Shown here: positions 13,867-50,160 of the stretch, one piece after another
Position numbering within the stretch: position 1 is the stretch's first letter
Layout: every line of letters begins with the position of its first letter
DNA from: a virus
Taxonomy: Duplodnaviria; Heunggongvirae; Uroviricota; Caudoviricetes
Virus record (IMG/VR): IMGVR_UViG_3300047202_000291
Strand: one strand, 5' to 3'
Length of the DNA stretch: 53,127 nt
The notes under the pieces: model-generated
Databases searched by the model: none
What the model was told of the DNA's origin: nothing
Seen by the model: the letters and a program-made list of their open reading frames with translations, nothing else
Position numbers and translations under genes: made by a program

Positions 13867-14037
13867 ATGACTTATGTAGGAAACAACTATAGCAAGGCAG
13901 ACTTCCAGAACATCGTTGTAGACGGTCTAGGAACCGTTGGTGCAGCGTTTGTCAGCTGGGTAGACTTGATCGTGCTGTTGATTGTTCTCGGCTTCATTGT
14001 CGGAATATTCATCAAGCTCGGCAACCTCTTTAAGTAA
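13867..14037 (+). CDS. Putative major coat protein A (56 aa; not in ORF track)
   Basis: MTYVGNNYSKADFQNIVVDGLGTVGAAFVSWVDLIVLLIVLGFIVGIFIKLGNLFK; TATA plus GGAGGT SD; C-ending codon bias. Confidence 0.75.
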   Translation: MTYVGNNYSKADFQNIVVDGLGTVGAAFVSWVDLIVLLIVLGFIVGIFIKLGNLFK

Positions 14038-14107: not shown

Positions 14108-14275
14108 ATGACATATACCGCAAATTACAATAAAGCCGACTTTCAGAACATAGTTGTTGATGGTCTAGGAACAGTAGGCGCTGCCTTTGTTTCATGGCTT
14201 GATTTAATTGTGTTGCTGATTGTGCTTGGGTTTATTGTGGGTATCTTCATAAAACTGGGCAACCTCTTTAAGTGA
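14108..14275 (+). CDS. Putative major coat protein B (55 aa; tandem paralogue; not in ORF track)
   Basis: MTYTANYNKADFQNIVVDGLGTVGAAFVSWLDLIVLLIVLGFIVGIFIKLGNLFK; GGAGG SD; 46/47 aa identical to A over the C-terminal part. Confidence 0.75.
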   Translation: MTYTANYNKADFQNIVVDGLGTVGAAFVSWLDLIVLLIVLGFIVGIFIKLGNLFK

Positions 14276-23661: not shown

Positions 23662-23670
23662 GGTGAGACT

Positions 23671-24975: not shown

Positions 24976-24996
24976 TTCGCAAGAGGGGCGAAGGAA

Positions 24997-25071
24997 ATGC
25001 AGAAGTATAAGGTATTGATTATTCTGGTAATTATTGCCCTAAATTTGTTTTCGAGCGTGATGTTTAAATGA
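24997..25071 (+). CDS. 24-aa signal-peptide-only mini-ORF
   Basis: MQKYKVLIILVIIALNLFSSVMFK*; GAGGGG upstream; TGA overlaps ATG 25068. Confidence 0.4.
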   Translation: MQKYKVLIILVIIALNLFSSVMFK

Positions 25072-30071: not shown

Positions 30072-31324
30072 ATAAAATGGCATTGAGTATCTGGGCGTTT
30101 ATTACGATTATTGGGGGAATAGGAATTGTTGTGGCTATTATCGGGAAGCTTTCTGGTGTGACGGAAGCATTAAAATTAGTGTTGGAATTTTTTGGACACG
30201 TATTTTCAACAATAAGGGATACATTTACAGCGATTACACACGTAGCGCCACCATTCATTAAGATAATTCTATTCTTGTTGATATTTTGGACAATGGGTGC
30301 TTTTTTGTTTTCAATGACAATAGGCGCCGCCTATGTGTGTCATCCACAATCAGGAGATTTATATCGGGGGTCTATCGATGAGATGATTATGTATTACATA
30401 TATCCAACCGGATCCTATGCTGAGCAGATTGCTTCTAATGATCAGTATTCTATCGAGGCTTTTAGACCCGGGGGGATATTTGGTGAATGGAATGAACCAA
30501 GTACAGATGAGTTTGGAGATATGGTTTTTTGGCAGACGCCAGCGATCTCTTCGAATTGTGGAGCAGATAACTGTCCTCCAGATGTTGGAATGTATTATAT
30601 AATTCCAAGCGAATATCCTTTTGAGGTAATAGATGGTTTTATCGCTAACGAAGAACCATTTGCATTTAAAATGTGTTACTTGCCACCACGAATAGGGCTT
30701 TCAAACGATTATGAGGTAACCTCTGGGACCTGTTATTTATCAGTTGAAAATTGTAGAGACCATGCCATTACTAATTTTGCTAAAGCTCCGAAGGCAGAGG
30801 AAATGTACCAATTCACATATCAATTAGATAATAAAGATAAGATATTTAATATTCGATTTAAACCAACGTCATCAAAATATGATTTGAATGATTGTACTGC
30901 TTTGCCAAATACTGGCGGAAATAATGTGCCGGAATCGGTCTATTTAAATGGAAACTACATTTCTTTAAAATTTAAGTTAAAAGAAGGGACTTTTGATTGT
31001 GGCGGAGCGGGTTGTATTGTTTATGATAGAACAATTAAGTCGATTGGGAGTCCTCAGGAAATTGTCACAAGGGAAAGTCCGGTTACTGCGAGAACTGTTT
31101 TTATGCAAAAAAACTTCAAAATGGTTAATTCTTTATCTAATCAATCAAATGATGAAAGTTCTTTATTTTCCTTTGCATGTGTTGAAGATAAGGATAGGCC
31201 GGGATTTTATGATGAGAATGAGACCTTTAAGATTCTTGGTATTCCGATTTTTGATATAAGGGTAATTTTAATTATAATTGGATTGACGGCCTTCTTTGGA
31301 TTAATTAGGCTAGTAAAGAGATAG
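30068..31324 (+). CDS. Polytopic membrane protein with a Cys-rich ectodomain
   Basis: N-terminal TMs, large Cys-containing loop, C-terminal TM. Confidence 0.7.
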   Translation: MNKMALSIWAFITIIGGIGIVVAIIGKLSGVTEALKLVLEFFGHVFSTIRDTFTAITHVAPPFIKIILFLLIFWTMGAFLFSMTIGAAYVCHPQSGDLYRGSIDEMIMYYIYPTGSYAEQIASNDQYSIEAFRPGGIFGEWNEPSTDEFGDMVFWQTPAISSNCGADNCPPDVGMYYIIPSEYPFEVIDGFIANEEPFAFKMCYLPPRIGLSNDYEVTSGTCYLSVENCRDHAITNFAKAPKAEEMYQFTYQLDNKDKIFNIRFKPTSSKYDLNDCTALPNTGGNNVPESVYLNGNYISLKFKLKEGTFDCGGAGCIVYDRTIKSIGSPQEIVTRESPVTARTVFMQKNFKMVNSLSNQSNDESSLFSFACVEDKDRPGFYDENETFKILGIPIFDIRVILIIIGLTAFFGLIRLVKR

Positions 31325-35035: not shown

Positions 35036-35112
35036 ATCTCTAATGAGTAGTAACAAAAGAAAATCAAGAGGAATACAAATTCTCATAAGATCGATTCGGG
35101 GGGTGTTTGAGA

Positions 35113-36006
35113 ATGATTAATCTCAAGGCTCTCGATCGTGAAACCCGCGACTATCTTGAGTTAAAAAGTGAGTCAGAACCTACATTTGAGCGTGCGCTCG
35201 ATGAAGACTATACAGATGAATTTTTTGAGACTCTTGAATCAAGAGGCTCTACAGATAGCAATCATTCTTTCATTTGTAGTGTAGCAGGAAAACAGGGCGG
35301 GGGAAAAAGCTATTCGGCATTGTCCTGTTGTTCAGTCCTTGATCCGAATTTTTCAATAGATAATATATATTTTGATTATAATGATCTTGTCAATAATAGG
35401 CATAGGCTTTTGCCAAATACTGCAGTTCTTGTTGACGAGCAGACAGAATCCTATGGTGTTGATTCTAATCGAGTCAATATAGTTCTTCACGCTCTCAAGG
35501 AGCAATTGAGAAAGAAATCAATTCATTTCTTTTTTTGTTCACCAACCTTGAAAGATGAATATCACACTTCGCAATATGTTCTCGAGACTATGTTTATTGA
35601 TTACGAGGAGAAGATTACCTATTGTGCGTATAAGACTAGGGAACTTTTGACCCTTGGTTATGTGAAGATACCCCACCCTCTTAATTTTCTTCCAAGAGAG
35701 TTTCTTGAGGAATATGAGGCCAGAAAAGATGCTCATCTTGATATGCTCACCGGCGTTAAGCAGGTCGATGAGATTGAAGATCGCGCAAAGCTCATTATGG
35801 CGTCTCCCATTTTTCTTAAGGCCGAGCTTATTTATAGGAAAAAGCTCGGCTATGTGCCTATGAATATGCTTTGGCAGATTATCAGTAAGCTTTATCCTGA
35901 TTTTAAATCTGGCGTAATGGTGGGTGAATTGGCGTCAAGGATTAAGCTTAATAAAGAGCTTACCGGTGAGTGGATGATTAGCGGCGTTAAGCCTAAAAAG
36001 AAATAA
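35113..36006 (+). CDS. Zot/pI-like P-loop ATPase (FtsK-HerA superfamily), candidate assembly/packaging motor
   Basis: Walker A GKQGGGKS, Walker B AVLVDE, downstream QLRKKSIHFFF.SP; no terminase nuclease domain; GGGGGTG SD. Confidence 0.7.
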   Translation: MINLKALDRETRDYLELKSESEPTFERALDEDYTDEFFETLESRGSTDSNHSFICSVAGKQGGGKSYSALSCCSVLDPNFSIDNIYFDYNDLVNNRHRLLPNTAVLVDEQTESYGVDSNRVNIVLHALKEQLRKKSIHFFFCSPTLKDEYHTSQYVLETMFIDYEEKITYCAYKTRELLTLGYVKIPHPLNFLPREFLEEYEARKDAHLDMLTGVKQVDEIEDRAKLIMASPIFLKAELIYRKKLGYVPMNMLWQIISKLYPDFKSGVMVGELASRIKLNKELTGEWMISGVKPKKK

Positions 36007-36515: not shown

Positions 36516-37142
36516 ATGAACAAATACAAATCATATGGAAAAGGTTGGCATTATGAATCTCATAGGCATAGTCTTGCGGCCAAGGGTATTAAGACATCAT
36601 TTGCATCGGAGAATGCATATATGAATTTGCTCGATTCAATTAATAAAATTTATCCAGAGCATGATTCGGATGAGCAGTTTGAACTCTTTGGTGATTGGAA
36701 TAGGGATTATTTAACGGGGTCAAAAGCATATGGTTCATTGTCATTTGCAGCAAAAGAAAATAAAGTTGAGGTTTATGGCGAAAAACTTAAATTAGCTCAA
36801 CCGAGAAAGATGGAAAGAGTTTATGATATTCAAAAGGATGTTGAATGGCAAATCGAGCGAGAAAGAAAAACAAAACAGCTGATTGCTTTAAAACAGGATT
36901 ATGCGAAAAGACTCGTGGAATTAGAGGAATTTGCTAAAAGAAAACCAACTTTTGAAAAAGAGGAAATTCCAGATCGGATTAAATTCGATGAGTTTCAGAG
37001 GCTACAGGATGAAATACAGAAACTCGATTCTGAGATAAATCCTTCGGTGGTAAAATATGAGAGGCATATAAAAGTCGCTGCACAAAGCTTATTTCCTTCA
37101 GAATTTAAAGATAAAATGGTGGTTGCTAAATCATATAAATAA
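36516..37142 (+). CDS. Tagged protein 2: coiled coil
   Basis: MNKYKSYGKGWHYESHRHSLAAKGIKT. Confidence 0.8.
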   Translation: MNKYKSYGKGWHYESHRHSLAAKGIKTSFASENAYMNLLDSINKIYPEHDSDEQFELFGDWNRDYLTGSKAYGSLSFAAKENKVEVYGEKLKLAQPRKMERVYDIQKDVEWQIERERKTKQLIALKQDYAKRLVELEEFAKRKPTFEKEEIPDRIKFDEFQRLQDEIQKLDSEINPSVVKYERHIKVAAQSLFPSEFKDKMVVAKSYK

Positions 37143-37153
37143 ATGGTGAAAAA

Positions 37154-38017
37154 ATGAATAATCGGTATAAATCCTATGGTAAAGGTTGGCATTTTGAATC
37201 AATCAGGCATAGTCTTGCAGCAAGAGGCATTTTGACAAGATTCAAGAAAGAAGCATCAGAGCCTATTTTTGGTAAAAGAGGAGTTGCCGAAGAATTAAAG
37301 GCAAGAAAGATGTCAGAAGCAAAAGCAAAAGATCTTATCGTTGCCGGAGCACTTTCTGATCTTCCTAAATCATCAGAGGAGAAGATGGCATTAAGGGAAT
37401 TGGAGCTTACATTAAGGCCAAGGGAAAGGCGTGGCGTTAGGATAATGAAATTAATCACTCAGAAAATTTCTTCTCCAATTCCATTCGAGAGTTTTGATCA
37501 TTATAAAAATAAGGTGAAAGGGGCTATTGAGGAAGTTATGCCTTTGAGTATGAAGGTTGATGTGAGGCTTCCAATAAGAGGAGGAAGTAAAGCTGGAGTT
37601 GTTACTGCAGAGCCTCCAACAGCAGAGGAATATATTGATTATCTGCTTGATCATCGTTATAAGGAGCAGTTTGGGTTCTATGATCCGTCAACAAAGACTT
37701 TCACTGCAGAGTATGAAGGTAGGCCGGAGAGCTTTGAAGTTTATGGTGGAAGAGGCATGAAGTCAAGAGAGTTAGAGAAACTTTCAGAAATGCTTGAGCC
37801 TATCGAAGAGAAGAAAAGGAAAGCTGAACTTGAGATTCTTGAAGATAAGCGAAGGAAAGAAGTTCGTGCAGAAGCATGGAAAAAAGCTGAACTCAGAGGA
37901 ATCCAATCTGATGAGATAGACGAAACAAAGGGGGACTTAATTAGTGTAGAAGTTAAGCCAACGAAATATCCCCCCATAAAAGCGGATATGATGTATTATG
38001 AGGGGGAAAAGGGATGA
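37154..38017 (+). CDS. Tagged protein 3: charged helical
   Basis: MNNRYKSYGKGWHFESIRHSLAARGILT. Confidence 0.8.
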   Translation: MNNRYKSYGKGWHFESIRHSLAARGILTRFKKEASEPIFGKRGVAEELKARKMSEAKAKDLIVAGALSDLPKSSEEKMALRELELTLRPRERRGVRIMKLITQKISSPIPFESFDHYKNKVKGAIEEVMPLSMKVDVRLPIRGGSKAGVVTAEPPTAEEYIDYLLDHRYKEQFGFYDPSTKTFTAEYEGRPESFEVYGGRGMKSRELEKLSEMLEPIEEKKRKAELEILEDKRRKEVRAEAWKKAELRGIQSDEIDETKGDLISVEVKPTKYPPIKADMMYYEGEKG

Positions 38018-39573
38018 GATTTTTCAGAAGATATAATAAGGGTTGGTATAACGATTCATATAGGCATAGCCTCGCAGCAAAAGGAATTAAAACAAGATTT
38101 GCTTCGAATGGACAGCAGTTAATACCTCCTTTGATGCCTCCGATCGAAGATAAGAACCTAACAAAGTTGGCTATGGATTATGCTGATGTTAAGATTAATA
38201 TTAATGAATTACAAAAATTAGTTTCGCCAGAAGAGGTATCTCTCGTTGTGGATAAGGCTGCTAAAATCACAGCAGATCGGCAATTAATCGAGGCGACTAA
38301 AGCCAGGGCAAGAAGAATGTGGGAAACGCCAGTTGGTCCGCGAAGAGAGGAAAGGGGAGCTGCTGCAATTCCAACAGCAAGAAAAATAGAAGAAGAAGAA
38401 AAGACCGAAGAGGAACTTGCCGCAGAACAAAGGCTTCCGTTCTCAAGATGGCTTACTCGGGTTAGAAGTGGTGATTTTACAGGGCCGGAGCCCCCATTGA
38501 ATGAGTCTGAGAAACTTGCACAAAGGGCAGCAGTTATTGATGGCGTACAGGCAAAAGTAGATCATGGTGATCTTCTAAAGGCTTCAGATTGGCAGGATTT
38601 GGAGAAAACATATGGTCTTTCACATTCAGAGATAAACAGGCTTAAAGCTTATCAACATCAGGAACTGCCTTCTTTGCTTAGGAAAACAGGTAGAGTCGCT
38701 GGCGCAGAAGCTCTCAAGATTGAAGAGGCAACCACCGGTTTCCTGAAGAAAGGTTGGGGATCTTTGAAAGAAAAAGTTCAGCCATCTATATCTGAAATTT
38801 CTGGTGGGAAAATTGAAGATGAGTTAAAGAAAATCGAAGCTAAGAAAGAGGAAATTGAGGCTGCAAAAGGTATATTTAATCCTCTCGGTGCCAGTTGGAT
38901 GGGTGAGGGTGGGGAAGAAAAGCTTAAGCAGGAGCAGAGAAAGAAGATTTATGCTGATGCTATTTCTGCTCAAAGGGATCTTGATGCTTTATTCGAAAAT
39001 AAGGAAGCTTTGGCAAAAGCTGATTTATCTGGTTATAATAAGGGAGAGAAGGCATTTAGGAAAGGAGATCGTGAGATGCTTTTAGATGCAATTACAGAGC
39101 TTGATGCTCAGCATATGAAGCTTCAGGATAGGATGTGGCATGTCGAGGCTGTTAGAGGTAATATTTTGAATAAGCAGACTATGGATCATACAATTGCTAT
39201 GGCTTCGGATGATGGCAATAAGATTATGCCAAACTTTTTATTTGGCAGTGGCGGAGGCAATGCAATTGTCAAGCAAACTAGGAAGGTTAACCAAATTAAG
39301 GAATCAATTAAGAAAAGTTCAAATGAGGTCGCTGGAAGGCTAGCTATGTTAAGAAACAAATTGAAGAGAATGGATGCGACAGTTCCATCTCAGGCACCAG
39401 TTCCAGAAGCTCCGGTTAAGGTATTCAGGAAAACTCAGGGTCTGGGAATCATTACGTCCTTTGATGATTTTGAAGGTCAATTAAAGCATCAGAACCCGGT
39501 GCTCGAAGGGATTCAAAAGAAGGAAATAAAGAATCCGGCTTTAAGAAAATTAGATGAGAGTGAAGAACAATGA
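38014..39573 (+). CDS. Tagged protein 4: 519-aa helical
   Basis: MRFFRRYNKGWYNDSYRHSLAAKGIKT. Confidence 0.8.
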   Translation: MRFFRRYNKGWYNDSYRHSLAAKGIKTRFASNGQQLIPPLMPPIEDKNLTKLAMDYADVKININELQKLVSPEEVSLVVDKAAKITADRQLIEATKARARRMWETPVGPRREERGAAAIPTARKIEEEEKTEEELAAEQRLPFSRWLTRVRSGDFTGPEPPLNESEKLAQRAAVIDGVQAKVDHGDLLKASDWQDLEKTYGLSHSEINRLKAYQHQELPSLLRKTGRVAGAEALKIEEATTGFLKKGWGSLKEKVQPSISEISGGKIEDELKKIEAKKEEIEAAKGIFNPLGASWMGEGGEEKLKQEQRKKIYADAISAQRDLDALFENKEALAKADLSGYNKGEKAFRKGDREMLLDAITELDAQHMKLQDRMWHVEAVRGNILNKQTMDHTIAMASDDGNKIMPNFLFGSGGGNAIVKQTRKVNQIKESIKKSSNEVAGRLAMLRNKLKRMDATVPSQAPVPEAPVKVFRKTQGLGIITSFDDFEGQLKHQNPVLEGIQKKEIKNPALRKLDESEEQ

Positions 39574-41735
39574 ACATGAAATCAGTCATATTAATCTTTT
39601 TTGCAATAATTGGGTTTACGATGCTAAGTTCAGCTATATTTATGAGCCAAAACTACAAAATGATTCAAGACAATGCCTTTAAGTCAGCGGTTCCTGTAGA
39701 AATAACTCAGATAAAGGAAGCCTCTACAGATGCAAATAAAATAAGGGCCATGTTGAAAGGTTCTATTTATGAATCTGGTGAAGGTATGTCTGTCTTCGGT
39801 GCTTGTTTTGATGGATATGGCTATTTGCTTCCCGGATCAAATGCGACCTTCTCATCTTGGTATCCAAATGGAACTCAGTGGCATAATGAATCTCCGATGG
39901 TTTCAATAGATAGTTCTGGTAGATTTGATATTCAGTTGACAATGGGAGATTCATATGGTACTTATTTAACAGAGATAAAGTGTAGGTATGAGGGGGATTA
40001 TGCAGTAGCTTATGGAGAATGGCAGAATCCGGATTGGGTTAAGAGGATTAAAGATACGCAGGATTCGGTGATTAATTTGACAAGCCTTGCTTCGGCGCAA
40101 TATGCTAATCTTACAATTTTAATTGGGGATTTCAAGGATGAGATACAAGTTAACTTTAGTCAGGTTCTTAATGCAATAGCGAATATTGATATTACTCCGC
40201 AATTTACTGGGTTGGATACTCAGCTTAAGGAAATATATAATCAGGTTCATGCTCTCGATACGTCTTTTTGGGTTATAGATACACAAGCTCCATGGTATTC
40301 TTTTGGATCGGGTATGTTTGAGTTTAGGGCGGTAGATATGCTTTCTCTAAATGATATATATGCTGTTTCGGACGACGGGTATATTGTATATTGGGATGGT
40401 GAAACTTGGTCTGTGGAGGCTAATTATTCTGACATTGCGTGGTATGGGGTCTCAGTATTGCCTGCTTCTACTCCTTACGCATGGTCTGTTGGGAGCGACA
40501 TTACGACAAGCACCTCCGTGTATTCGGTCAATGGCGGGACTCCGACCACGTTCAATGATAGCGTTGGTACAGCATATTGGGATATTAAGCTTTTCCCAGC
40601 CCCAAATAGTCCATCATCTAATTTTATGGGCTATATTTTGGAAGACAACGGCGTCGTATGGTATTCATCAGATTCGGCAATCACATTTAGTAATCCGATT
40701 AACATCACCTGTTCTGCAACTTCAGCAGATATTGGAAGAATTTCCCAAATCCTTTCTAATGCGGATCTTGGAGTCACTTCAGGGTATAGATTAGCGATGG
40801 TTATGTGCGATCAGTTCTTATATTATGATGGAGTTGGTTTTAGTGCATATACTGTGGCAAACCAGAAATTTAGGGATGTAGAGGTTGTCTATGATGATGT
40901 GGCATTTGCAGTTTCAAAGGATACAGTTACCAATGAGCTTAATGTATATCAATTTAATGGGACTGCATTGAGCCTTGTTTATTCAGCTAATGATTCTACC
41001 ATTGAGCCGAGGGGAATTGCTGCTGCAACTCCAAATGACGTTTGGGTGGTCACAAACAATCCATCAGTATATTATCATTATGATGGCTTTAAGTGGGAAT
41101 ATGCAAATTATCCTTACTCTGGTGCAATTGGACTAAGCATATTATTTACGAACGGTACTATTCCGGGGCTTTATGATATCAGTATGTTTAATTCGAAGAA
41201 TGCTTATGCGGTTGGAACAGATGGGCTGATTATGAAATTTTATAGCGCATATGATGAGAGATTTGATAAAGTTATAAACAATATATTGAATCTTTCAAAT
41301 ACTTTGAATTTATCTATTTTAAATGATATATATGGTGCTATTGTCGTGATAAATGGAACCACTTATAATATAAGTGTGGTTTTGGCCTCGATGAACACAA
41401 GTCTTATGGATTTGACAAATATTGTATTGGCGATGAACTTTTCGATAACGACTGAACTGACAAATCTTGATGCTAAGATCGATTTACTTAACGCTTCGAT
41501 GAATGTAAGATTCGATGAAGTCATTACCGAGATAAGTTACTTAGATTTATATTTAAATAGCACAATTTATCCGGCTTTGAATTTAATATTGGAAAGGCTT
41601 GGTGTAATTGAGACAAATGTCAATGCAACTTTGCAAATAGTTAATGAGACTCAGATTACAGTAAATCAGATGAATGCTTCAATAAATGAATTGTTGAATC
41701 AGTCGAGGCGTATCCACGCTTGGATAACGGTGTAG
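39570..41735 (+). CDS. Spike-like protein: Ig-like domain, beta-propeller and long coiled coil
   Basis: Signal anchor; domain shared with 19699; DIYAVSDDGYIVYWDG-type blades; heptad-rich C-terminus. Confidence 0.75.
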   Translation: MNMKSVILIFFAIIGFTMLSSAIFMSQNYKMIQDNAFKSAVPVEITQIKEASTDANKIRAMLKGSIYESGEGMSVFGACFDGYGYLLPGSNATFSSWYPNGTQWHNESPMVSIDSSGRFDIQLTMGDSYGTYLTEIKCRYEGDYAVAYGEWQNPDWVKRIKDTQDSVINLTSLASAQYANLTILIGDFKDEIQVNFSQVLNAIANIDITPQFTGLDTQLKEIYNQVHALDTSFWVIDTQAPWYSFGSGMFEFRAVDMLSLNDIYAVSDDGYIVYWDGETWSVEANYSDIAWYGVSVLPASTPYAWSVGSDITTSTSVYSVNGGTPTTFNDSVGTAYWDIKLFPAPNSPSSNFMGYILEDNGVVWYSSDSAITFSNPINITCSATSADIGRISQILSNADLGVTSGYRLAMVMCDQFLYYDGVGFSAYTVANQKFRDVEVVYDDVAFAVSKDTVTNELNVYQFNGTALSLVYSANDSTIEPRGIAAATPNDVWVVTNNPSVYYHYDGFKWEYANYPYSGAIGLSILFTNGTIPGLYDISMFNSKNAYAVGTDGLIMKFYSAYDERFDKVINNILNLSNTLNLSILNDIYGAIVVINGTTYNISVVLASMNTSLMDLTNIVLAMNFSITTELTNLDAKIDLLNASMNVRFDEVITEISYLDLYLNSTIYPALNLILERLGVIETNVNATLQIVNETQITVNQMNASINELLNQSRRIHAWITV

Positions 41736-41744
41736 GTGATTAAA

Positions 41745-41888
41745 ATGAAACTGAAAATGAATAAGTTGGTGTCTGTGCCGAAAGCAAAAATAAGTTTAAC
41801 CCCGCGCGGGCACAAAGCGCATCTTGGGATAAGGACGGTTAATCTAAAGGGTACCGAAAAGAAGAAATGGGCTCTTCCGTGGAAATAA
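41745..41888 (+). CDS. 47-aa basic microprotein
   Basis: AGGTGAT SD; MKLKMNKLVSVPKAK...KKKWALPWK*. Confidence 0.6.
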   Translation: MKLKMNKLVSVPKAKISLTPRGHKAHLGIRTVNLKGTEKKKWALPWK

Positions 41889-41898
41889 GGTGAGGAAA

Positions 41899-42687
41899 AT
41901 GAATCGCTATAAATCATATGGAAAAGGATGGCATTTTGAGTCATATAAGCATAGTCTTGCAGCTAAAGGGATTAAAACCAGATTTGCCGCAGACGATGAT
42001 AAAGTCATTATGAAAACAAGGAGTCTTGATGATTATCCTCCTGGAAGCCCAGAGAGGATGCAACATGTTCAAGAGATTATAAAGGCAGAAGAGCTTAAAA
42101 AGAAGAAAGGTCCAAGGGGCATTTCCGGCCCATCGACAATGAGAACGGATGTTGCTGTTGTTTACGGGACGACAGTTATGGATAAAGAGGGGGTTTTGCA
42201 TGTGGTTGGTGGCAAAAGGATTCCTAAGAAAAGGTTAAATCAGTTTTATGATGACTATATAAAAAAGACGCTTATGAATAAAAAAGTGCTCATGGATAAA
42301 GAAAAAGAAGCTGAAATAAGAGCTTTTATGATTGAGCAGGGTAAGCAGATTATGAAAAAAGAGAAAGGAGCGGACTTAACTATAGAAGAGGAAGCTGAAA
42401 TAAAACAAACGGTTGATGAGAGAATTAATGCAGCAAAGCTTCAATTTGGTAAGGTTATGGAGGATGTTAAGGCGATGGATGGTTGGCTTGATTCAATCGA
42501 TGTTACATCAGACTCTTTTGATAATCAGCTTCAAGAAGCTCAAGCAAGGGTAAATACAGTTATGGACCAACGAGGCACTATAATTCCAGGTCAAGAAGTC
42601 ACAAGATTAAGGGATAAAGTTAAAGAGATTAGGGAAAGAAGAAATGTTTACCTAAGGGGTAGACCGGAAAAATGGCCACCAGAATGA
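41899..42687 (+). CDS. Tagged protein 5: charged helical
   Basis: MNRYKSYGKGWHFESYKHSLAAKGIKT; AGGTGAGG SD. Confidence 0.8.
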   Translation: MNRYKSYGKGWHFESYKHSLAAKGIKTRFAADDDKVIMKTRSLDDYPPGSPERMQHVQEIIKAEELKKKKGPRGISGPSTMRTDVAVVYGTTVMDKEGVLHVVGGKRIPKKRLNQFYDDYIKKTLMNKKVLMDKEKEAEIRAFMIEQGKQIMKKEKGADLTIEEEAEIKQTVDERINAAKLQFGKVMEDVKAMDGWLDSIDVTSDSFDNQLQEAQARVNTVMDQRGTIIPGQEVTRLRDKVKEIRERRNVYLRGRPEKWPPE

Positions 42688-43199
42688 TGAGTAAATATAA
42701 GCGCCAAGGCTGGTATTTTGAGTCGCAAAGGCACAGTCTTGCTGCAAAAGGTATAAGAACGAAGAGATTTGACTTTGCTCTAATTAAGAAAATAGACGAA
42801 GGTCAGCCCAAGCCATTGACACCGCAGGAGATCGCTGAGGATAAGGCAAGGGAAAAAAAGCCATTTGATATGTTTAAAAGCCCCGAAGAGAAATCAGATT
42901 ATGGTAAGAACAGAAGGCGTGCGACCATCGATGAGGTTCAGCAGATGATGAACAATAAGTTTAGGCAACTCGAGAGGAAGGGAGACATTCGTTTTGAGGA
43001 TAGTATTCGTTTCCTAGATCATGAATATGCGCCAATTGCCAGGCGATTCCTCGATGGTGGTATGACCTTGGAGCAATTCGAATATGAGTCGGATGTTGCT
43101 TTTAATAATTTTACAAAGAATCATAAGCGAAGCTTAAGCCCTTTTGCATGGGGCGAACAGCAAGAGAGTTTTTTTAATTGGGAGGCACAGGCAAAATGA
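42684..43199 (+). CDS. Tagged protein 6
   Basis: MMSKYKRQGWYFESQRHSLAAKGIRT; ATGA coupling. Confidence 0.8.
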   Translation: MMSKYKRQGWYFESQRHSLAAKGIRTKRFDFALIKKIDEGQPKPLTPQEIAEDKAREKKPFDMFKSPEEKSDYGKNRRRATIDEVQQMMNNKFRQLERKGDIRFEDSIRFLDHEYAPIARRFLDGGMTLEQFEYESDVAFNNFTKNHKRSLSPFAWGEQQESFFNWEAQAK

Positions 43200-43450
43200 A
43201 AAAATTAAGACCAATCGAGAAGTTCGTTGGAATGGGCATTATTGCTCAGCACAACATCATTAAAAGGTACAAAAAATGAGTATATGTAGGAATTGTGGCG
43301 TAATGCATGCGGGTTTTTCATGCCCGGGATGTGGAAAGATTCATGGTTGAATATGATCCGCTTTGGGCAATAAAGCCAAAGAAGAGAATAAGAAGATTTG
43401 CAAAATATAAGAATATCAATGTTCCAAGAAGCAAAACGAAATGGTGGTAA
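43196..43450 (+). CDS. Chain of three coupled micro-ORFs: 43196-43279 (27 aa), 43276-43350 (24 aa, CxxC..CxxC), 43343-43450 (35 aa, basic)
   Basis: Overlapping start/stop codons fill the gap exactly; MSICRNCGVMHAGFSCPGCGKIHG; MVEYDPLWAIKPKKRIRRFAKYKNINVPRSKTKWW. Confidence 0.45.
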
Positions 43451-43451
43451 A

Positions 43452-43595
43452 ATGATTAGAAAATTTCCAAATCAGAGGAAATATGGGTTATATTCCTTAA
43501 CTTCACATAAAAGATTAGGGACGTTCAGAAGTCGAACAGCGGCTAATAAAAGGGAGCGTCAGATTCAGTATTTTAAACACAAAGGAGGAAAATAA
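43452..43595 (+). CDS. 47-aa basic microprotein
   Basis: YGLYSLTSHKRLGTFRSRTAANKRERQIQYFKH, a motif I associate with uncharacterised viral proteins. Confidence 0.65.
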   Translation: MIRKFPNQRKYGLYSLTSHKRLGTFRSRTAANKRERQIQYFKHKGGK

Positions 43596-43596
43596 A

Positions 43597-44895
43597 ATGA
43601 AAAAAGAAATTTTAGTAGTGTTGGCATCCTTGATGATGCTATGTGTAATTAGTTCGGTTTATGCGGCAGTGACAGAATGTGTAGACGCGAGCGGTAATCC
43701 GCAGGCGGGTCCGGGTGCGTATCCTATGTATAATGATACTGGGGTAGTTACAAATGTGACGCTCGGACAGATTTGTGTAGATGCTACAAATTATGATGTG
43801 GTGCCAAATGTCACATATAATTGTGGAAATACAAGTGCCATGATAGATAACGCGTGTACCTATACAACGTATTTTACTGGATTCCTCGGTGACGGGACAG
43901 TGACTTGTACGAATGTAGGGTGGGTCACCGGAACAACATATACTTTGGCAGTCGGTTATATAGTTAATACCACGATTAATGCGAGCTGGGTAACGAGAGG
44001 AGATTATATCTCTGATGTTGGTGAGATCGTGCCTGCAAAGGATGCATGTTTAAATGAGTATACCTTGCAAGGACCGACCGGATATTGTGACGGAGCAGGC
44101 GCTCTCGATACAGATGGTTCATTGGCAAATGCTACTGATGGAAATGTCTGTATTATTGGAGTTGATTCTCAGCCAGATGCATCAGTTCATTGTATAGGCA
44201 CAGCCGATACTTGGTCGGATTGTGTTGAAAACCAATGTGAAATAGATGAATATTATGTTGGTTATAGTGTGGGAAATGCGACTGGATGCTCCGATACTGA
44301 TTGGGTTTTGATGGGCGTAAGTGATCCTGCAAATGGATATAGGGTAAGCAACACCGGTCATGCGAATCTTTGTACATATGTGGCAACCGGTGGGATTCCG
44401 GTCTATACTGGATGTGCAAATGCATATACGAGGAATGGAACATCTGGTTATTGTAATGGTGCTGGCGGGGATGCAACGACAACTTTGCATGTGACTGAGG
44501 GTAATGTTTGTTCAGCTGGTGCCAATGCGCAGCCAGGTGCAGGAACAAATTGTGGGACTTGGTATAATTGCGTACAGGGTCAATCTGCAATCAATACATA
44601 TTATGTTGGTTATGCAGCGTCAGGTTCAAGTTGCTCTGATACTGATTGGGTGGCAACAGGATCGCATGTAGATTTAGCGAGCGGTCTTAGAGCAAGATAC
44701 ACCGATCATGAGTCAACTTTATGTAGCACATCAGGATATAATGCAGCATATAATAAAGGGGATTTCGAGCCAATCGTGACGGATGCTATGGGAACTGCAG
44801 GAGCTGGTGTTGTAAGTTGGGCTGATCTCGCGGTGACTTTGCTCGTTATATTATTCCTGGGTGGAGCAGTCCTCAAATACAAAAAATTATTTTAA
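43597..44895 (+). CDS. Minor coat/adhesin: signal peptide, Cys-rich repeats and C-terminal coat domain
   Basis: Last 52 aa are 27/52 identical, ungapped, to coat B. Confidence 0.8.
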   Translation: MKKEILVVLASLMMLCVISSVYAAVTECVDASGNPQAGPGAYPMYNDTGVVTNVTLGQICVDATNYDVVPNVTYNCGNTSAMIDNACTYTTYFTGFLGDGTVTCTNVGWVTGTTYTLAVGYIVNTTINASWVTRGDYISDVGEIVPAKDACLNEYTLQGPTGYCDGAGALDTDGSLANATDGNVCIIGVDSQPDASVHCIGTADTWSDCVENQCEIDEYYVGYSVGNATGCSDTDWVLMGVSDPANGYRVSNTGHANLCTYVATGGIPVYTGCANAYTRNGTSGYCNGAGGDATTTLHVTEGNVCSAGANAQPGAGTNCGTWYNCVQGQSAINTYYVGYAASGSSCSDTDWVATGSHVDLASGLRARYTDHESTLCSTSGYNAAYNKGDFEPIVTDAMGTAGAGVVSWADLAVTLLVILFLGGAVLKYKKLF

Positions 44896-44923
44896 ATTTT
44901 TTATTTTTTATTTTAGGTAAAAA

Positions 44924-46036
44924 ATGAACAAATACAAATTATATGGAAAAGGTTGGTATTTTGAATCAATTAGGCATAGTCTTGCAGCTAAAGGAATAAA
45001 AACTTGGCAAAAGGAATATAAGTCCCTCGTCAAATCTTTTCCAGGTGAAAATCCAAGATTAACCAAGGAATTTGCTAGATTCCGGCAAGAAGATCCGGGT
45101 AAATATGATAAATTCAGGGTTAAAAAGACTAAAACAGGTAAAGAGCTTATATTCGGCCATAATAAAAAGATGCGTGTTTGGGAGTTACAGAGTGTCCTTG
45201 TTCCAAGAGTTTCAATGGCATCTAAAGACTATTCTTTCATAGGAACTGCAGATGAGAAGCCGGGGCAGTTCATAAAGGAGAATTTGGAGTCACATGAAGA
45301 TCATTCAATAGAGCATTATGCAAAAGGAGTTGAATATGTACTAAAGCATCCTTTTAAGGATCTTGATGGTGATTGGCTTTCATATAATGAAGCTGCAGGT
45401 AACCATGTTGAACTTTCAAAACATCCTGTTGAGCGTGCCGAAGAACGTGGAGCAGCATTATTTGGTCGTGTCTTGTCGCAGGCCAACATGGAACCTTTGA
45501 TTGAGCGGGGTCAAGGTAGGACATTTAGGGAAATAACAATGGATATTGCATTTGGTAGAAGATCGGGGGTCACAGATGACAACGAACTTCATCAAAAGAG
45601 CCAAAAGCCTTGGCATGATCGGATCAAAGGCGGTCTCGCAGATAAGAAGAAGCCATCTGATTTTGATCAGAAGCAACTTATAGATGGTGTTAAAGTTGAA
45701 ATAGAGCACACCTCAAATCCTTTAATTGCCAAAGAAATAGCTATGGATCATTTGACAGAAGATAAATTATATTATAAGAAATTGGAGCTTATGGAAAAGA
45801 AGAGACATTCGATGCAAGCAGAAACGGTAGGAGTAGTTACAGCTGAGGCTCTTGCTGGTGCGGTTGCTGAACATGAAAAGCGAGCAACACAAAGGCAGGC
45901 GTATCATCAGGCTCATATTTTGGAGCATCAGCATCATAAAGATATTATAGAAGAGCAGGGTTATGATGTGAGGTCACCAATTCAAAAAACTGCTGCATTT
46001 ATGCTTACGGATGAAGGCTTTGAAAAGCCACAATGA
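44924..46036 (+). CDS. Tagged protein 7: multidomain with a DUF5661-like domain and His-rich end
   Basis: Tag; GGLAD...GVKVEIEHT...AKEIAMDHLTED..YYKKLELME. Confidence 0.8.
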   Translation: MNKYKLYGKGWYFESIRHSLAAKGIKTWQKEYKSLVKSFPGENPRLTKEFARFRQEDPGKYDKFRVKKTKTGKELIFGHNKKMRVWELQSVLVPRVSMASKDYSFIGTADEKPGQFIKENLESHEDHSIEHYAKGVEYVLKHPFKDLDGDWLSYNEAAGNHVELSKHPVERAEERGAALFGRVLSQANMEPLIERGQGRTFREITMDIAFGRRSGVTDDNELHQKSQKPWHDRIKGGLADKKKPSDFDQKQLIDGVKVEIEHTSNPLIAKEIAMDHLTEDKLYYKKLELMEKKRHSMQAETVGVVTAEALAGAVAEHEKRATQRQAYHQAHILEHQHHKDIIEEQGYDVRSPIQKTAAFMLTDEGFEKPQ

Positions 46037-46050
46037 TGGAGGTAAAGAAA

Positions 46051-46149
46051 ATGGCAAAAAACAAATTTTGGAAAAACCCAGTTGCTGCGCTTGGCGCTGC
46101 CGGTAAGAAAGCAATACCTAAGATAAAGCACAAAATAAAAATAATGTAA
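46051..46149 (+). CDS. 32-aa basic microprotein
   Basis: GGAGGT SD at 46038; MAKNKFWKNPVAALGAAGKKAIPKIKHKIKIM. Confidence 0.6.
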   Translation: MAKNKFWKNPVAALGAAGKKAIPKIKHKIKIM

Positions 46150-46167
46150 ATTAGTGGAGGTGAAATA

Positions 46168-46449
46168 ATGAGTCCATATGTGCCCACTTATGTGGCGGGT
46201 GATTTGTCAGCAATCGGTGTAGATGCGGCTGGAACAGCAGGGGCAGCAGCTGTTGGTTGGATTCCCTTGCTTGTCGGAGCCGGCATTATATATAAAGGCA
46301 CCGAGCTTGGCATAAAGAAATATAAGACATTAAAGAAAGAAGCAAAGAAGCATCCAAGGAAAGCAATGGCTTATCGTGGATGGCATTATGATTCATATAG
46401 GCATTCATTAGCAGCGAAAGGTATAAAAACTGGAAGATATAGGAGGTAA
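46168..46449 (+). CDS. Tagged protein 8: coat-protein paralogue carrying the tag at its C-terminus
   Basis: N-terminal 33 aa are 15/33 identical to coat B; GWHYDSYRHSLAAKGIKT at aa 71-88; GGAGGTGA SD. Confidence 0.8.
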   Translation: MSPYVPTYVAGDLSAIGVDAAGTAGAAAVGWIPLLVGAGIIYKGTELGIKKYKTLKKEAKKHPRKAMAYRGWHYDSYRHSLAAKGIKTGRYRR

Positions 46450-46454
46450 TTAAA

Positions 46455-46817
46455 ATGAAATATCAAGGAAAAGGTTGGCGTTATGAAAATTATAGGCACA
46501 GTTTAGCAGCAAAAGGTATAAGAACAAAGATAAGACCAATTAGTCTTTACGCAAGACCGCCATATATGTACGAGCATATGCATGGTCAGGAGCCAATGCC
46601 TATCGAAGAGCCTATTAAGTTAAAAAAAGAAGAATATGAGACTATTTTTGAGAAAGGAACTGAAACTGCGGAGAATCTCGGTGGGCAATTAGGTGATTTT
46701 ATATTCAGGACCAATCCTGAAAGTAAGGAAACTGCTTTCGAGAAGGGCACTACAACAGCAGAAGAAAAAGGAAAAGCCCTTGGGGATAAGATTTTTCGTG
46801 GTCCAATTAGATTTTGA
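46455..46817 (+). CDS. Tagged protein 9 with an internal 30-aa tandem repeat
   Basis: Tag; ETIFEKGTETAENLGGQLGDFIFR and ETAFEKGTTTAEEKGKALGDKIFR. Confidence 0.8.
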   Translation: MKYQGKGWRYENYRHSLAAKGIRTKIRPISLYARPPYMYEHMHGQEPMPIEEPIKLKKEEYETIFEKGTETAENLGGQLGDFIFRTNPESKETAFEKGTTTAEEKGKALGDKIFRGPIRF

Positions 46818-46826
46818 GGTAAGAAA

Positions 46827-46982
46827 ATGGCATATGATTTAGATGGAACATCCCCGATCATTAAGAAAGTAACTAAAGGTCCATATAAAAAAACAGATCC
46901 TATTTGGTGGCGGGATGCTGGTGGGAATCTTTTTGAGAAGGTTTCAATCAATTCCGTTAAAAAATGGAAGTGGATAAGGTAG
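46827..46982 (+). CDS. 51-aa basic/Trp-rich microprotein
   Basis: GAGGT SD; ...PIWWRDAGG...KKWKWIR*. Confidence 0.6.
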   Translation: MAYDLDGTSPIIKKVTKGPYKKTDPIWWRDAGGNLFEKVSINSVKKWKWIR

Positions 46983-46994
46983 GAGGTAATGAAA

Positions 46995-47162
46995 ATGAAA
47001 TACAACTATGCGAGTAAATTAAAATTTTATGACCTAAAGGCAAGAAAATCTTTCAAGACTGATAAGTATAAAGCAGTCAAAAAATCAGGAAGGAATTTTG
47101 TCGTGGCAACAGCGCCTTCGGGAGCTACTGCCTGGAGAATAGTTGCAAAACCAAAAAAGTAA
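46995..47162 (+). CDS. cc1: CC1-like archaeal chromatin protein (55 aa; not in ORF track)
   Basis: LKFYDLKARKSFKTDKY...FVVATAPSGATAWRIV matches the pattern I recall for Thermoproteales CC1 (KFYD.KA...F.TD.Y...F.VA.SP..G....R); GGAGGT SD. Confidence 0.65.
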   Translation: MKYNYASKLKFYDLKARKSFKTDKYKAVKKSGRNFVVATAPSGATAWRIVAKPKK

Positions 47163-47170
47163 TTTGAGTT

Positions 47171-47195
47171 GGCCTGCAGCAATGTGGGCTTTATT
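47171..47195 (+). terminator. GCAA-tetraloop hairpin plus T-run after cc1
   Basis: GGCCTGCA-GCAA-TGTGGGCT-TTATT. Confidence 0.35.
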
Positions 47196-47221
47196 ATCAT
47201 CAGTTCATACGAGGACGAAAA

Positions 47222-47776
47222 ATGAAAGGTTGGCGATACGAAGGATATAGGCACAGTTTGGCAGCTAAAGGTATAAGGACCTTTAAGAAAGGGAAATATC
47301 ATTTCACTTTGCCAGGTTCAGAAGTCATAAAACTTTCGAAGGAAATCGAAAGTGAGCTTAAGCCTTTATCAAGGAGAATTGACATTGCGGGCAGTATACG
47401 AAGAAAAGTCGATGAGCCAGTTGATGTTGATATTGTGATGATTCCAAAAAATAAAGAGAAAGTTCGTGAGAAACTTGCACATCTCGGGAGAATTACTGCA
47501 CAGGGAGAAACTATGGTTGAGACGAAGATCAATGGAGTCGATGTAGATACTTATTTTGCAGAACCAGATTCATACGGTGCGCAGCTTATGACGAGAACCG
47601 GTCCTTGGCAAGGCAATCTTGGAAATCGGACTTTGGCAAAAAACAAATGCATGAAGCTTAGCCAATATGGTCTTTTTGACCGAAAAACAGGCAAAAGAAT
47701 AGCTGGAAGAACAGAAAAGGAGATTTATGAGGCCCTTGGTAAAAAATATAAAGAACCAGAACTCAGGGGAATGTAA
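47222..47776 (+). CDS. polX: Tagged protein 10: minimal DNA polymerase X (palm and thumb only)
   Basis: IAGSIRR..DVDIV, VDVD, QLMTRTG, KLSQYGLF, EKEIYEALGKKYKEPELR. Confidence 0.85.
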   Translation: MKGWRYEGYRHSLAAKGIRTFKKGKYHFTLPGSEVIKLSKEIESELKPLSRRIDIAGSIRRKVDEPVDVDIVMIPKNKEKVREKLAHLGRITAQGETMVETKINGVDVDTYFAEPDSYGAQLMTRTGPWQGNLGNRTLAKNKCMKLSQYGLFDRKTGKRIAGRTEKEIYEALGKKYKEPELRGM

Positions 47777-47834
47777 TACGATTTATACTCGAATTTATAA
47801 ATGACGAAATAAATTGAAAACACAGGGTGAAAAA

Positions 47835-49115
47835 ATGGAAAAAATGAAGATGAAAAATCCGAATAGGATTAAAGTGATGTTGCTTGTATTAACAGTATTC
47901 ATTTTGGGTGGAGCAATAGCAGTTACGCAATATGCATATGGTTCTCAGGTTATTGAGAAAAATGAGAATATGTATATGATTTCCCACACAGAGTATAGAT
48001 ATGGTGAGATGGGGCAAATCATCGTTAGACTGGTTGATTTCCAAGGGGATCCAATTGTCGTGGATAATTGTACTGCTTCAATATTATATCCCGATAAGAG
48101 TTTTTTTGCGCAGGATGCTTTGATGTTGGATTCGGAGAACATAACTGGAGATCATTATTATAATTTTACCACGCCAAATGGTCCGGAAGGAGTCTATGAA
48201 TACCAGGCGACCTGTAATTATGCTCCAAGTAAAACAAAAACTGCAACTAATTCATTTCACTTGTCTTCAGCATTTAACACAACTATAGCTGATCTTGAGA
48301 TTGCAATTGCAGATTTGACGGAGATAAATAGCACAGTAGTTGCTTTTAGAACAGAAGTTCAGGCAAATTTTAGTCAAGTTCAGTCTGTTCTTAGTATAAT
48401 TAATGGAACTGCTGAAGAAATTCAATATACTGTTGAGCAGGCTAATGCGACGATAAATGGGATTAACTCAAATCTGAATGACTTTATTACTAATACCACT
48501 CTCGCCTTGGCTACAATAGATGCAAATACTGTGGCTATTAATAATACAGTAAATGCAATTTATGCAGATCTTGCGACTTTGAATACAACAATGATTGTTA
48601 GATTTGATGCGATTGATGCATATATGTCAGCGAACTTTACTCAGGTATTTAGTAATATATCTGATTTAAGGCAGCTTGTGTATGATATTAATACGAGTAT
48701 CATTGATGCGGCGAATGCAATCAATTTGTCCTTATCAGGATACATCGCTGATTTATCTGCGCAATTAGATGCAGTTAATCTGTCCTTATCGACCCAGATT
48801 TCCGATTTATCAACGAAAGTTGATAATGTGAATCTGTCAATTAGTTCAAGTATAGCAGATTTTAGGCAGGAAGTTCAGGTTAATTTCAGTCAGGCTTGGG
48901 TGTGGTTTGATTTAATAAACACAACGACAATTAGCACCTATGATTATATGACCGGAACTCTGGCAGATAATATAGATAGTGTACTGACAACCATCGGAGT
49001 GATTAATGCGACAGTAAATAGGATTGAAGAGAAGACAGATGTGATAAACACAACAACTAAGCAAATCTTGCAGAATCAGGAAGATGAGGTCTTCATAAGT
49101 ACATATAGTGGATGA
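47835..49115 (+). CDS. Spike-like protein: MG2/Ig-like domain and long glycosylated coiled coil
   Basis: TATA at 47794; signal anchor; TEYRYGE...GVYEYQATC...SFHLS; heptad/sequon-rich stalk. Confidence 0.75.
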   Translation: MEKMKMKNPNRIKVMLLVLTVFILGGAIAVTQYAYGSQVIEKNENMYMISHTEYRYGEMGQIIVRLVDFQGDPIVVDNCTASILYPDKSFFAQDALMLDSENITGDHYYNFTTPNGPEGVYEYQATCNYAPSKTKTATNSFHLSSAFNTTIADLEIAIADLTEINSTVVAFRTEVQANFSQVQSVLSIINGTAEEIQYTVEQANATINGINSNLNDFITNTTLALATIDANTVAINNTVNAIYADLATLNTTMIVRFDAIDAYMSANFTQVFSNISDLRQLVYDINTSIIDAANAINLSLSGYIADLSAQLDAVNLSLSTQISDLSTKVDNVNLSISSSIADFRQEVQVNFSQAWVWFDLINTTTISTYDYMTGTLADNIDSVLTTIGVINATVNRIEEKTDVINTTTKQILQNQEDEVFISTYSG

Positions 49116-49119
49116 GAAT

Positions 49120-50160
49120 ATGGATAAGTATAAGCATTACGGTAAAGGTTGGTATTATGAGTCCCTGAGGCACTCTTTGGCAGCTAGGGGCATAAGATCA
49201 ACCTTTGCTTTCGATGATAGATCCAATATTGTTACAATGGAGGACAGGACTCCGGGTAGAATAAGACAATATAATAAATTTCTACAGGAAAATGCTACCT
49301 TGCCCAACGAGCAGTTAGCAATAGCCTTGATGGGTAGGTTTGGTGAAATCAAGCAGCAATATGCTGATAGGCTTGTGCGGGAATTCAGGAAATGGCAGGA
49401 AGTCCCTATTCCGAAGTATGTTTTAGAGCAAGATAAAGGTAAGGCTAAGCTAAGAGTTGCAGATTATCATGACGCGATCGATAAAGTTCTTAGTAAGGAT
49501 CATTATCAAAATGCTACGGATGAGGAGGTTATTGTATATCTTATAAAGCAATTTCCAGAAGTTAATGAGCGCTACGCGAAAGAATTGCTTTATCGGCATA
49601 AGAAATTTGAAGAAGATCAGAAGAGGGCAAAATTCGGTTGGCATGGTAATTATGCGTCAAAATTGACAGGATTTCCAATAGCTTATACAAAGCAGGGTAT
49701 TCCAATCACGATAAAGAATCCTTTAAGGACTTCCTTTAATGGGAAACGCTATCCCGTGACTCCGGAAGAAGTCAAGCAGGAATTTGATAATTTATCCGAT
49801 GAGGCTGTGGCTGGCATTAGAGAGATTAGCTTCCGTGATCCATCAGAAGTGCCAGGAAGTAAGCAGGGTCTCGCTTGGGCACAATATGCGCGCTCTGCTA
49901 AGAGAATTAACATATTCTCTCAGCCAAAGGTAGAGGCCCAAAATCCTGAGAATAGGCGTTATTTGATGGCATATGTGCTTCCTCATGAGGCCGCCCATCA
50001 TGCGACTTTACATAATATGAAACTTACTGAAGATCCTATGATAGTTGAGGAGGCTCGCGCAGATGCGATGGTATATGGCGAAGATCCATTGAATCCAAAG
50101 GTTTTGCAAAGGCGCATTGCTTTGAGGCAGGCTCAATTTGGTCCAAAGGGTACGGTTTAA
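49120..50160 (+). CDS. Tagged protein 11: zincin-like (HExxH) metallopeptidase
   Basis: Tag; VLPHEAAHH...EEARAD. Confidence 0.75.
   Translation: MDKYKHYGKGWYYESLRHSLAARGIRSTFAFDDRSNIVTMEDRTPGRIRQYNKFLQENATLPNEQLAIALMGRFGEIKQQYADRLVREFRKWQEVPIPKYVLEQDKGKAKLRVADYHDAIDKVLSKDHYQNATDEEVIVYLIKQFPEVNERYAKELLYRHKKFEEDQKRAKFGWHGNYASKLTGFPIAYTKQGIPITIKNPLRTSFNGKRYPVTPEEVKQEFDNLSDEAVAGIREISFRDPSEVPGSKQGLAWAQYARSAKRINIFSQPKVEAQNPENRRYLMAYVLPHEAAHHATLHNMKLTEDPMIVEEARADAMVYGEDPLNPKVLQRRIALRQAQFGPKGTV

Follow-up and report, generated by a model that had tools for sequence, protein, structure and literature searches.

Why does a gene for a large, putatively secreted protein end in a full copy of a very small protein that the same DNA also encodes on its own? 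The question is raised by the open reading frame (ORF) at 43597-44895 on the + strand of IMG/VR record IMGVR_UViG_3300047202_000291, a stretch of 53,127 nucleotides (nt), here called the window, that appears to come from an uncultivated archaeal virus-like genome. An initial annotation had read this ORF as natural phage display, an adhesin fused N-terminally to a complete coat domain. From its sequence, the encoded product of 432 amino acids (aa) is a predicted type-I membrane glycoprotein composed of a Sec signal peptide, three disulfide-rich β repeats and, at the C-terminus, a module related to two small proteins encoded in the same window, which we call coat A and coat B. The parts of the fusion gene and the two free genes are as follows.

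43584..43588, + strand: Shine-Dalgarno-like GGAGG, read from the sequence; the ATG at 43597 lies 8 nt downstream
43597..43668, + strand: signal peptide, aa 1-24 (MKKEILVVLASLMMLCVISSVYA, followed by AV), with the n/h/c layout of the Sec type and an AlphaFold2 (AF2) helix at residues 3-20
43669..44001, + strand: Cys-rich β repeat R1, aa 25-135, 27-29% identical to R2 and R3 (E 2e-9 and 4e-9)
44002..44370, + strand: Cys-rich β repeat R2, aa 136-258, 43% identical to R3 (E 3e-30)
44371..44730, + strand: Cys-rich β repeat R3, aa 259-378, membrane-proximal, present in 18 of 18 homologues
44731..44892, + strand: C-terminal module, aa 379-432 (54 aa), a full-length paralogue of the free 55-aa protein
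13867..14037, + strand: free small protein coat A, 56 aa, matched by the module profile at E 2e-28, with GGAGG at 13855-13859
14108..14275, + strand: free small protein coat B, 55 aa, matched by the module profile at E 1.4e-29, with GGAGG at 14096-14100

The C-terminal module is homologous to the free proteins along their whole length. Recomputing the alignment returned the count given in the initial annotation: the last 52 aa of the fusion are identical to residues 3-54 of coat B at 27 of 52 positions without a gap (24 of 52 for coat A), and the remaining registers give just 2-7 identities. A phmmer search against the six-frame translation of the window recovered coat B at E 1.2e-13, coat A at E 9e-12 and ORF 46168-46449 at E 1.5e-5. 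The identity does lie at 44737-44892, where it had been placed, but the module begins two residues before 44737. Since profile positions 1-55 are all covered, at aa 378-432 of the fusion (E 3e-27), the homology extends over the entire free protein, from about 44731. The two ends of the alignment also coincide, with S-G-Y-N-A-A-Y-N-K-G-D-F at the start of the fused form facing M-T-Y-T-A-N-Y-N-K-A-D-F at the start of the free one; because both forms begin and finish together, it was correct to speak of a full coat domain. Roughly half of the fused/free identities fall within the polar 25 residues ahead of the hydrophobic helix, and the match is therefore not an artefact of helix composition.

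The fused module consists of the motif Y-x3-Y-x3-D-x3-I-x2-D-x2-G-T-x-G-A, followed by the hydrophobic helix and a KYKKLF tail. The protein has 18 homologues, ranging from 97% to about 30% identity and carrying one to three repeats each, of which 13 end in the same coat-type module. The signal peptide, already recognized in the initial annotation, has a counterpart in 17 homologues, where a comparable leader is followed by A-(V/I)-T-x-C. The Cys-rich, sequon-bearing repeats had been put at about 360 aa; the ectodomain (aa 25-378) indeed comprises three repeats with 20 Cys and nine N-X-S/T sequons, but measures 354 aa. R1 is all-β in the AF2 model at a predicted local distance difference test (pLDDT) score of about 85-92, R2 is missing in homologues of 297-301 aa (P0009, P0010, P0012 and P0013), and R3 keeps invariant Cys, Trp and Tyr-Tyr-Val-Gly-Tyr positions, its invariant columns including C305, C319, W322, C325, Y335, G338, Y339, C346 and C376. 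The AF2 model of the whole protein, built with 19 sequences, reached a pLDDT of 81, with an all-β ectodomain and end helices at 390-398 and 400-428. As to the free genes, a TATA-like TTTATAAATA at 13815-13824 lies upstream of coat A and may, judging by its letters, be a promoter; a T-rich tract follows the coat B stop codon, and both window copies combine GGAGG with a T-rich tract behind.

The combination of a secreted ectodomain with this module is widespread. A profile built from 14 modules was searched against 1.84 billion representative proteins and matched 247 clusters at E ≤ 0.001, 31 of them at E ≤ 1e-10. Among the best 150 of the 247 clusters, the module is free (47-80 aa) in 34, stands at the extreme C-terminus of proteins of 84-1969 aa in 90, and is N-terminal or internal in 26, nearly all of which also carry a tag peptide described below. 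At least 53 of the 90 C-terminal fusions start with a signal-peptide-like segment, and up to 100 sequons were counted. A Pfam domain scan covered 60 of these fusions; the families found repeatedly were Laminin_G_3 (five), GH39 (three) and NosD, Beta_helix, Peptidase_M14 and DUF2341 (two each), accompanied by single matches to a β-propeller (Beta-prop_ACSF4/PQQ_2), filamin, cohesin, PKD, pentaxin, Big_7, legume lectin and Kelch. Such families are binding or degrading types, usually found on viral receptor-binding or depolymerizing proteins or on cell-surface proteins. The survey of domains fused in relatives, which the initial annotation had proposed as a check, thus points to a general design in which many different ectodomains precede one module.

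A metagenome scan returned 54 loci, in which the free genes are nearly always tandem, in two to four copies (five in L006). In five of these loci a fused gene follows immediately behind the free array: it encodes a 724-aa Laminin_G_3/PKD protein in L006, and proteins with the module at the C-terminus of 201 residues in L019, 1278 residues in L023 and 766-772 residues in L041 and L042, with a second one of 455 residues in L042. On the 121.5-kb contig VAPB010399959.1, a free pair (L043) and an orthologue of the window gene (L059) are about 38 kb apart, resembling the 30-kb spacing between the free pair and the fusion gene of the window. The first array gene carries an N-terminal extension of about 20-25 aa at L009 7029-7244, L014 1075-1308, L015 9722-9973 and L049 1275-1541, and the last array gene is extended at the N-terminus in L025, L031 and L053; the extension of P0021 holds two Cys together with sequons and is the smallest natural 'passenger' on the module. 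Scans of IMG/VR with coat B, the whole protein and an alignment (A8) gave no relative, and coat B, the whole protein and the alternative anchor discussed below were all without a tblastn match in 50,697 deposited records of phages and archaeal viruses. Nor did a relative emerge when 185,579 species genomes were scanned by pattern, which at the limited sensitivity of that scan is weak evidence of absence. In the literature searched, no description of the module family or of a coat-fused adhesin was found. These libraries and this literature contain no account of the module family, of the ectodomain family or of the virus group. A viral surface protein on a coat-like helix anchor is known from filamentous phages; what is new here is that a complete copy of the putative coat, with clear homology to it, recurs behind dozens of unrelated ectodomains.

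The initial annotation had also placed the coat N-terminus outside, and a predicted orientation with the N-side of the module outside is supported by leaders, N-terminal sequons, charge polarity and proteins with an extra transmembrane segment. Six free representatives have a leader that looks cleavable and ends in A ahead of (A/T)Y, precisely where the leaderless M-(A/T)-Y forms begin. Of the 112 distinct free modules, 64 have an N-X-S/T sequon within the first 14 residues, where shuffles that preserve composition give 22.9, and none occurs later; over the same 112 modules the mean net charge is -1.1 for the first 25 residues and +2.3 for the last 12. Nine clusters of 119-171 aa (P0078, P0035, P0061, P0142, P0042, P0151, P0107, P0046 and P0089) start with a Lys-rich, signal-less N-terminus, continue with an extra hydrophobic segment and end in a coat-type module. 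Because the extra segment precedes the module, its N-side would be kept outside in these proteins as well, and the predicted hairpin would put a basic, possibly DNA-binding domain on the inner face.

Two module subtypes were distinguished in this comparison. In the coat type, the helix is long and strongly hydrophobic, W-x-D-L-I-V-L-L-I-V-L-G-F; in the tag-linked subtype, the hydrophobic part is short and rich in Pro and Gly, V-x-W-I-P-x-x-V-x-x-x-x-x-Y-G-G-A-K, and every protein with this subtype also contains the peptide GWxxESxRHxLAAKG, either before or behind the module (representatives are P0083, P0082, P0104, P0105, P0116 and others). Signal-less proteins that begin with the tag were considered as a contradiction of the N-out topology and rejected as such; they belong to the subtype with the short Pro/Gly-rich part and, having a module subtype of their own, are irrelevant to coat-type topology.

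We hypothesize that free and fused forms both insert in the host membrane, with the polar, often glycosylated N-side outward and the short basic tail inward. The fusion would be exported, glycosylated, disulfide-bonded and held in the membrane by its module. Because the juxtamembrane motif and interaction surface of the free protein are kept, the fused module could be taken up as a minor subunit, packing into a lattice of abundant free subunits that would form a virion coat or envelope. The three β repeats would thereby be mounted on the outer surface, most likely for host recognition. By analogy with known display systems, such co-assembly of free and fused forms into a virion shell or envelope, with the ectodomain displayed, would amount to natural display, and we rate it as equally likely to be right or wrong. 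The same evenly divided judgement applies to the small 55-aa protein as a putative virion coat. A complex prediction with three coat B copies and the fused module, run without controls, gave a score of 0.00 and speaks neither for nor against co-assembly.

Several observations weigh against this proposal. The name coat rests on analogy, and neither solved structures nor coat families gave a match to the module: the 55-aa protein has no sequence match in the PDB and no PHROGs family above noise, and 14 module sequences compared with Pfam at E up to 10 gave a single Phage_Coat_B match at E 0.042, which is noise. Calling the ectodomain an adhesin is a guess, because it lacks a fold or family match. 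It has no match in Pfam, PHROGs or NCBIfam; Foldseek searches with the full-length AF2 model returned nothing at E ≤ 0.001 in the PDB and BFVD, a VIA-wide fold search matched only the terminal helix (Z ≤ 4.0), an atlas fold search with the full-length model gave template modelling (TM) scores of at most 0.34, and R3 folded alone gave a poor model (pLDDT 62). Of this genome the capsid search covered the 53-kb window, and a canonical capsid gene may lie outside it. In an identity comparison across loci, the fused module of the window shows no co-evolution signal with its own free coats, to which it is 50% identical, the values for free coats of other loci being 48% at the median and 55% at the maximum. 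Because it does not track the free coats of its own genome, the window fusion gene is, on sequence grounds, an old paralogue and not a recent copy. Tracking of the genome's own free coat by the fused module holds in L006, L019 and L023 and fails in the window, in VAPB010399959.1, in L041 and in L042, and was dropped as a general argument.

The Cys-rich ectodomain is, moreover, not dependent on the coat-type anchor, because five of the 18 homologues (P0008, P0011, P0014, P0015 and P0016) end in another anchor, which is about 85 aa long and has two hydrophobic helices. One of them is encoded at 2600-3607 of L001. This 11-kb contig also encodes a tyrosine integrase and a protein of 1265 aa and may represent a separate element of smaller size, so that the ectodomain seems to pass from one element to another. 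The possibility that the two-helix anchor is a copy of another free small protein was rejected: no free relative was found by search, no paralogue is present on L001, and comparison with His1 VP21 by hhalign gave a probability of 1.0% (single-sequence template, low sensitivity).

Among the alternatives, the one that survives best keeps the membrane and dispenses with the particle. The module would be an anchor or oligomerization unit in the infected-cell membrane and not in the virion, with the free proteins building a membrane patch, an egress structure or an exclusion structure. We regard this as unlikely, yet deserving of serious attention. The fusions would decorate the infected cell, for instance as a barrier to superinfection, as an aid to contact between cells or in remodelling of the cell surface, a role of the same rather low probability. 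The topology, the conserved motif and the presence of free and fused forms in one genome fit a membrane assembly equally well, nothing ties the protein to particles, and the glycosyltransferases and the PMT_2-like membrane protein of the window suggest surface remodelling. Incorporation into a virion is favoured by the layout of the free genes, which implies high dosage: tandem arrays placed in front of blocks of secreted-protein genes resemble viral structural modules. No other capsid candidate was found in the 48 window ORFs or in 80 ORFs of relatives, and neither set gave a match to a canonical capsid, portal or terminase family. The acidic outer part and the basic tail also match helical coats that touch nucleic acid, such as pVIII. 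Behind the two free coats of the window, eleven consecutive genes (14381-31324) start with a signal peptide or transmembrane segment and carry up to 28 sequons; they are likely a surface or structural block.

The next alternative places the whole element outside the virosphere, as a plasmid-like or otherwise extrachromosomal element or a piece of host genome, with the module serving as a cellular surface-anchoring or filament subunit. The window has 36-41% G+C, essentially all of its long ORFs on the + strand and a strong GC skew, and some giant archaeal extrachromosomal elements likewise have one-strand genes and strong GC skew. No hallmark virion gene was recognized in the 48 window ORFs. 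Their Pfam and PHROGs matches comprise a Cas4-like PD-(D/E)XK nuclease, a family-2 glycosyltransferase, the PMT_2-like membrane protein, Pol-beta-like, DUF5661 and DUF285 families and PKD, GLUG and DUF2341 surface domains, and include no tail family; a search for tRNA genes in the window found none. Against a cellular origin stand the lack of any relative in the species-genome pattern scan, limited in sensitivity as noted, and the gene neighbourhoods, where Mom-family, homing-endonuclease, Cas4-like and RecU genes give a content typical of viruses. We consider such an origin improbable.

The neighbourhoods of the relatives, which also carry glycosyltransferase, Cas4-like and RecU genes, fit viruses. 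The 80 ORFs around their coat arrays, with flanks including those of L009, L010, L016, L034, L043, L040 and L015, encode six Mom-family proteins and five endonucleases, four of the LAGLIDADG and one of the NUMOD3 type, so that viruses of this group may modify their DNA and carry homing elements that are active. In the window, the sole ORF with a Walker A motif lies at 35107-36006 and was matched by sequence neither in Pfam nor in the PDB; Zot and MCM are both missing from the Pfam families counted over the 48 window ORFs.

The module could also be a sorting or processing signal of the archaeosortase style, removed or lipid-modified after export, so that its likeness to small ORFs would have no structural meaning. 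Many secreted proteins do end in this succession of motif, hydrophobic helix and basic tail, and C-terminal sorting signals share the layout. Yet no Pfam or NCBIfam sorting-signal family was matched (NCBIfam at E up to 1), the conserved polar part of about 25 aa is far above the known length of sorting motifs, and free copies in tandem arrays, some with leaders of their own, would make no sense; PGF-CTERM and similar archaeosortase signals differ from the module in having curated models and in lacking free-standing tandem copies. We consider a sorting signal very improbable. Nor does the module look like a generic anchor. In 25 free and 25 fused aligned modules, Y, Y, D, D and G outside the membrane helix are invariant, with I and G/A nearly always kept; since a plain anchor would need no such residues, the coat-type module is suggested to be more than that. 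Five other window glycoproteins (starting at 15682, 16934, 20782, 25068 and 30068) have a signal peptide and a C-terminal hydrophobic anchor, none of which resembles the module (all ≤ 7 bits). Because these five anchors are unrelated to it, ordinary anchors were available and the coat-like one was used selectively. The C-termini of 20782-23661 and 25068-30071 share a second anchor family, V-x-P-x-I-x-x-x-Y-x-x-x-x-x-N-x-x-x-x-x-L-x-x-V-x-L-I-x-I-F-x-I-I-G-L-K-K, unrelated to the coat module.

Chance similarity between hydrophobic helices, a reasonable concern as transmembrane segments are a frequent source of spurious matches, can be regarded as excluded by the sequence comparison, given an E value of 1e-13 within the window, a single matching register, half of the identities in the polar part ahead of the helix and a motif invariant across both sets of 25 modules.

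Returning to virion display, the initial annotation had likened the gene to engineered pVIII display. The architecture is indeed alike, but the closest natural analogue is inovirus pIII. Display phages of the 'type 88' carry gene VIII twice in one genome, once as wild type and once fused. As in that system, a signal peptide and a foreign ectodomain stand N-terminal to a single-helix coat or putative coat protein of about 50 aa, unfused copies occur in the same genome, and a mosaic particle with few displaying subunits would be expected. In contrast to engineered display, the arrangement is natural and its ectodomains reach about 1,900 aa, far past what pVIII tolerates; the element is of a large, double-stranded DNA archaeal type, and the module has no sequence relation to pVIII. 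Inovirus pIII has a signal peptide, disulfide-bearing N-terminal receptor-binding domains and a C-terminal helix that lies first in the membrane and then among the coat helices. ORF 43597-44895 shares with it the signal peptide, a Cys-rich ectodomain and a C-terminal hydrophobic anchor. To our knowledge, the pIII anchor has no recognizable sequence homology to pVIII, and pIII is found only at one tip; the anchor described here, by contrast, is a full-length paralogue of the small protein (52% identity) and is used on many ectodomains.

The free module itself resembles the major coats of M13, Pf1 and Pf3 in its length of about 55 aa, its single long helix, acidic N-side, hydrophobic core and basic tail. 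Filamentous-phage coats have a leader in M13 and Pf1 and none in Pf3, and the free module likewise exists in leader-bearing and leaderless variants. Unlike inovirus coats (Phage_Coat_Gp8 and Phage_Coat_B), it matches no family and has N-glycosylation sequons, and unlike inoviruses, whose genomes are small and of single-stranded DNA, the element has a genome more than 10 times larger (53 kb in the window) with no Zot/pI family among the 48 ORFs. In tailed phages, the BIG2 domain of the phi29 capsid protein is an Ig-like decoration fused to a structural protein. This is similar in that binding domains are displayed naturally through a structural-protein fusion; tailed-phage decoration, however, is borne by every HK97-fold subunit or by accessory proteins, whereas here a separate minor gene copies a whole small protein as its anchor. 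SSV1 VP1 and His1 VP21 are small, very hydrophobic hairpin capsid proteins encoded beside a receptor-binding adhesin (bioRxiv 10.1101/2021.07.29.453957), and text searches of that preprint turned up no adhesin with a copy of the capsid protein. The likeness to these spindle-virus capsids lies in a small, hydrophobic, membrane-protein-like product, paralogous copies and adjoining large adhesin-type genes; the module has one hydrophobic helix, unlike VP1 and VP21 with about 80 aa and two, and its alignment (A6) gave a probability of 0.8% against His1 VP21 (ORF21) in hhalign, from a single-sequence template at low sensitivity.

The fusion gene lies within a larger conserved run of genes that carry the tag peptide. 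An orthologue occupies the matching place in three further long contigs, L064, L065 and L059 (= L003), where it adjoins a DUF5661 gene within a run of genes starting with the peptide GWxxESxRHSLAAKG. The corresponding run of the window, at 36516-50160, is conserved in the same three contigs, with 8-11 tagged genes per 20 kb, and the tagged proteins include Pol-beta-like, topoisomerase-I-like and DUF5661 proteins. Because a gap of only 1 nt separates ORF 43597-44895 from the small ORF upstream, it is probably transcribed within this cluster. One further gene of the cluster carries a module.

46168..46449, + strand: 93-aa protein in which a variant ('type B') module comes first, a Lys-rich linker follows and a GWxxDSYRHSLAAKGI tag forms the C-terminus, matched by the module profile at E 3e-21

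Its hydrophobic part, GWIPLLVGAGIIY, is short and Pro/Gly-rich, as in all tag-linked module proteins, and the L064 orthologue (92 aa, module and tag) is found at the same place.

A broader picture is possible but doubtful, namely a clade of large, as yet undescribed archaeal viruses with a shell or envelope of 55-aa pVIII-like helices, copies of which would serve as a universal two-sided display adaptor. Ectodomains such as lectins, glycosidases and β-helices, of up to about 1,900 aa, would be presented outside by N-terminal fusion, and basic or tagged cargo would be held inside, either by the additional hairpin segment or by extension of the C-terminus. For annotation, the module profile picks out candidates for virion surface proteins in metagenomic viral contigs that could not otherwise be annotated, as in the 247 clusters reported above. 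If display of this kind is true, a pVIII-like helix can in nature bear very large passengers, a point relevant to display technology. If the small protein is a coat, fusion to a coat copy would give these viruses a simple, evolvable rule for gaining and swapping host-recognition proteins.

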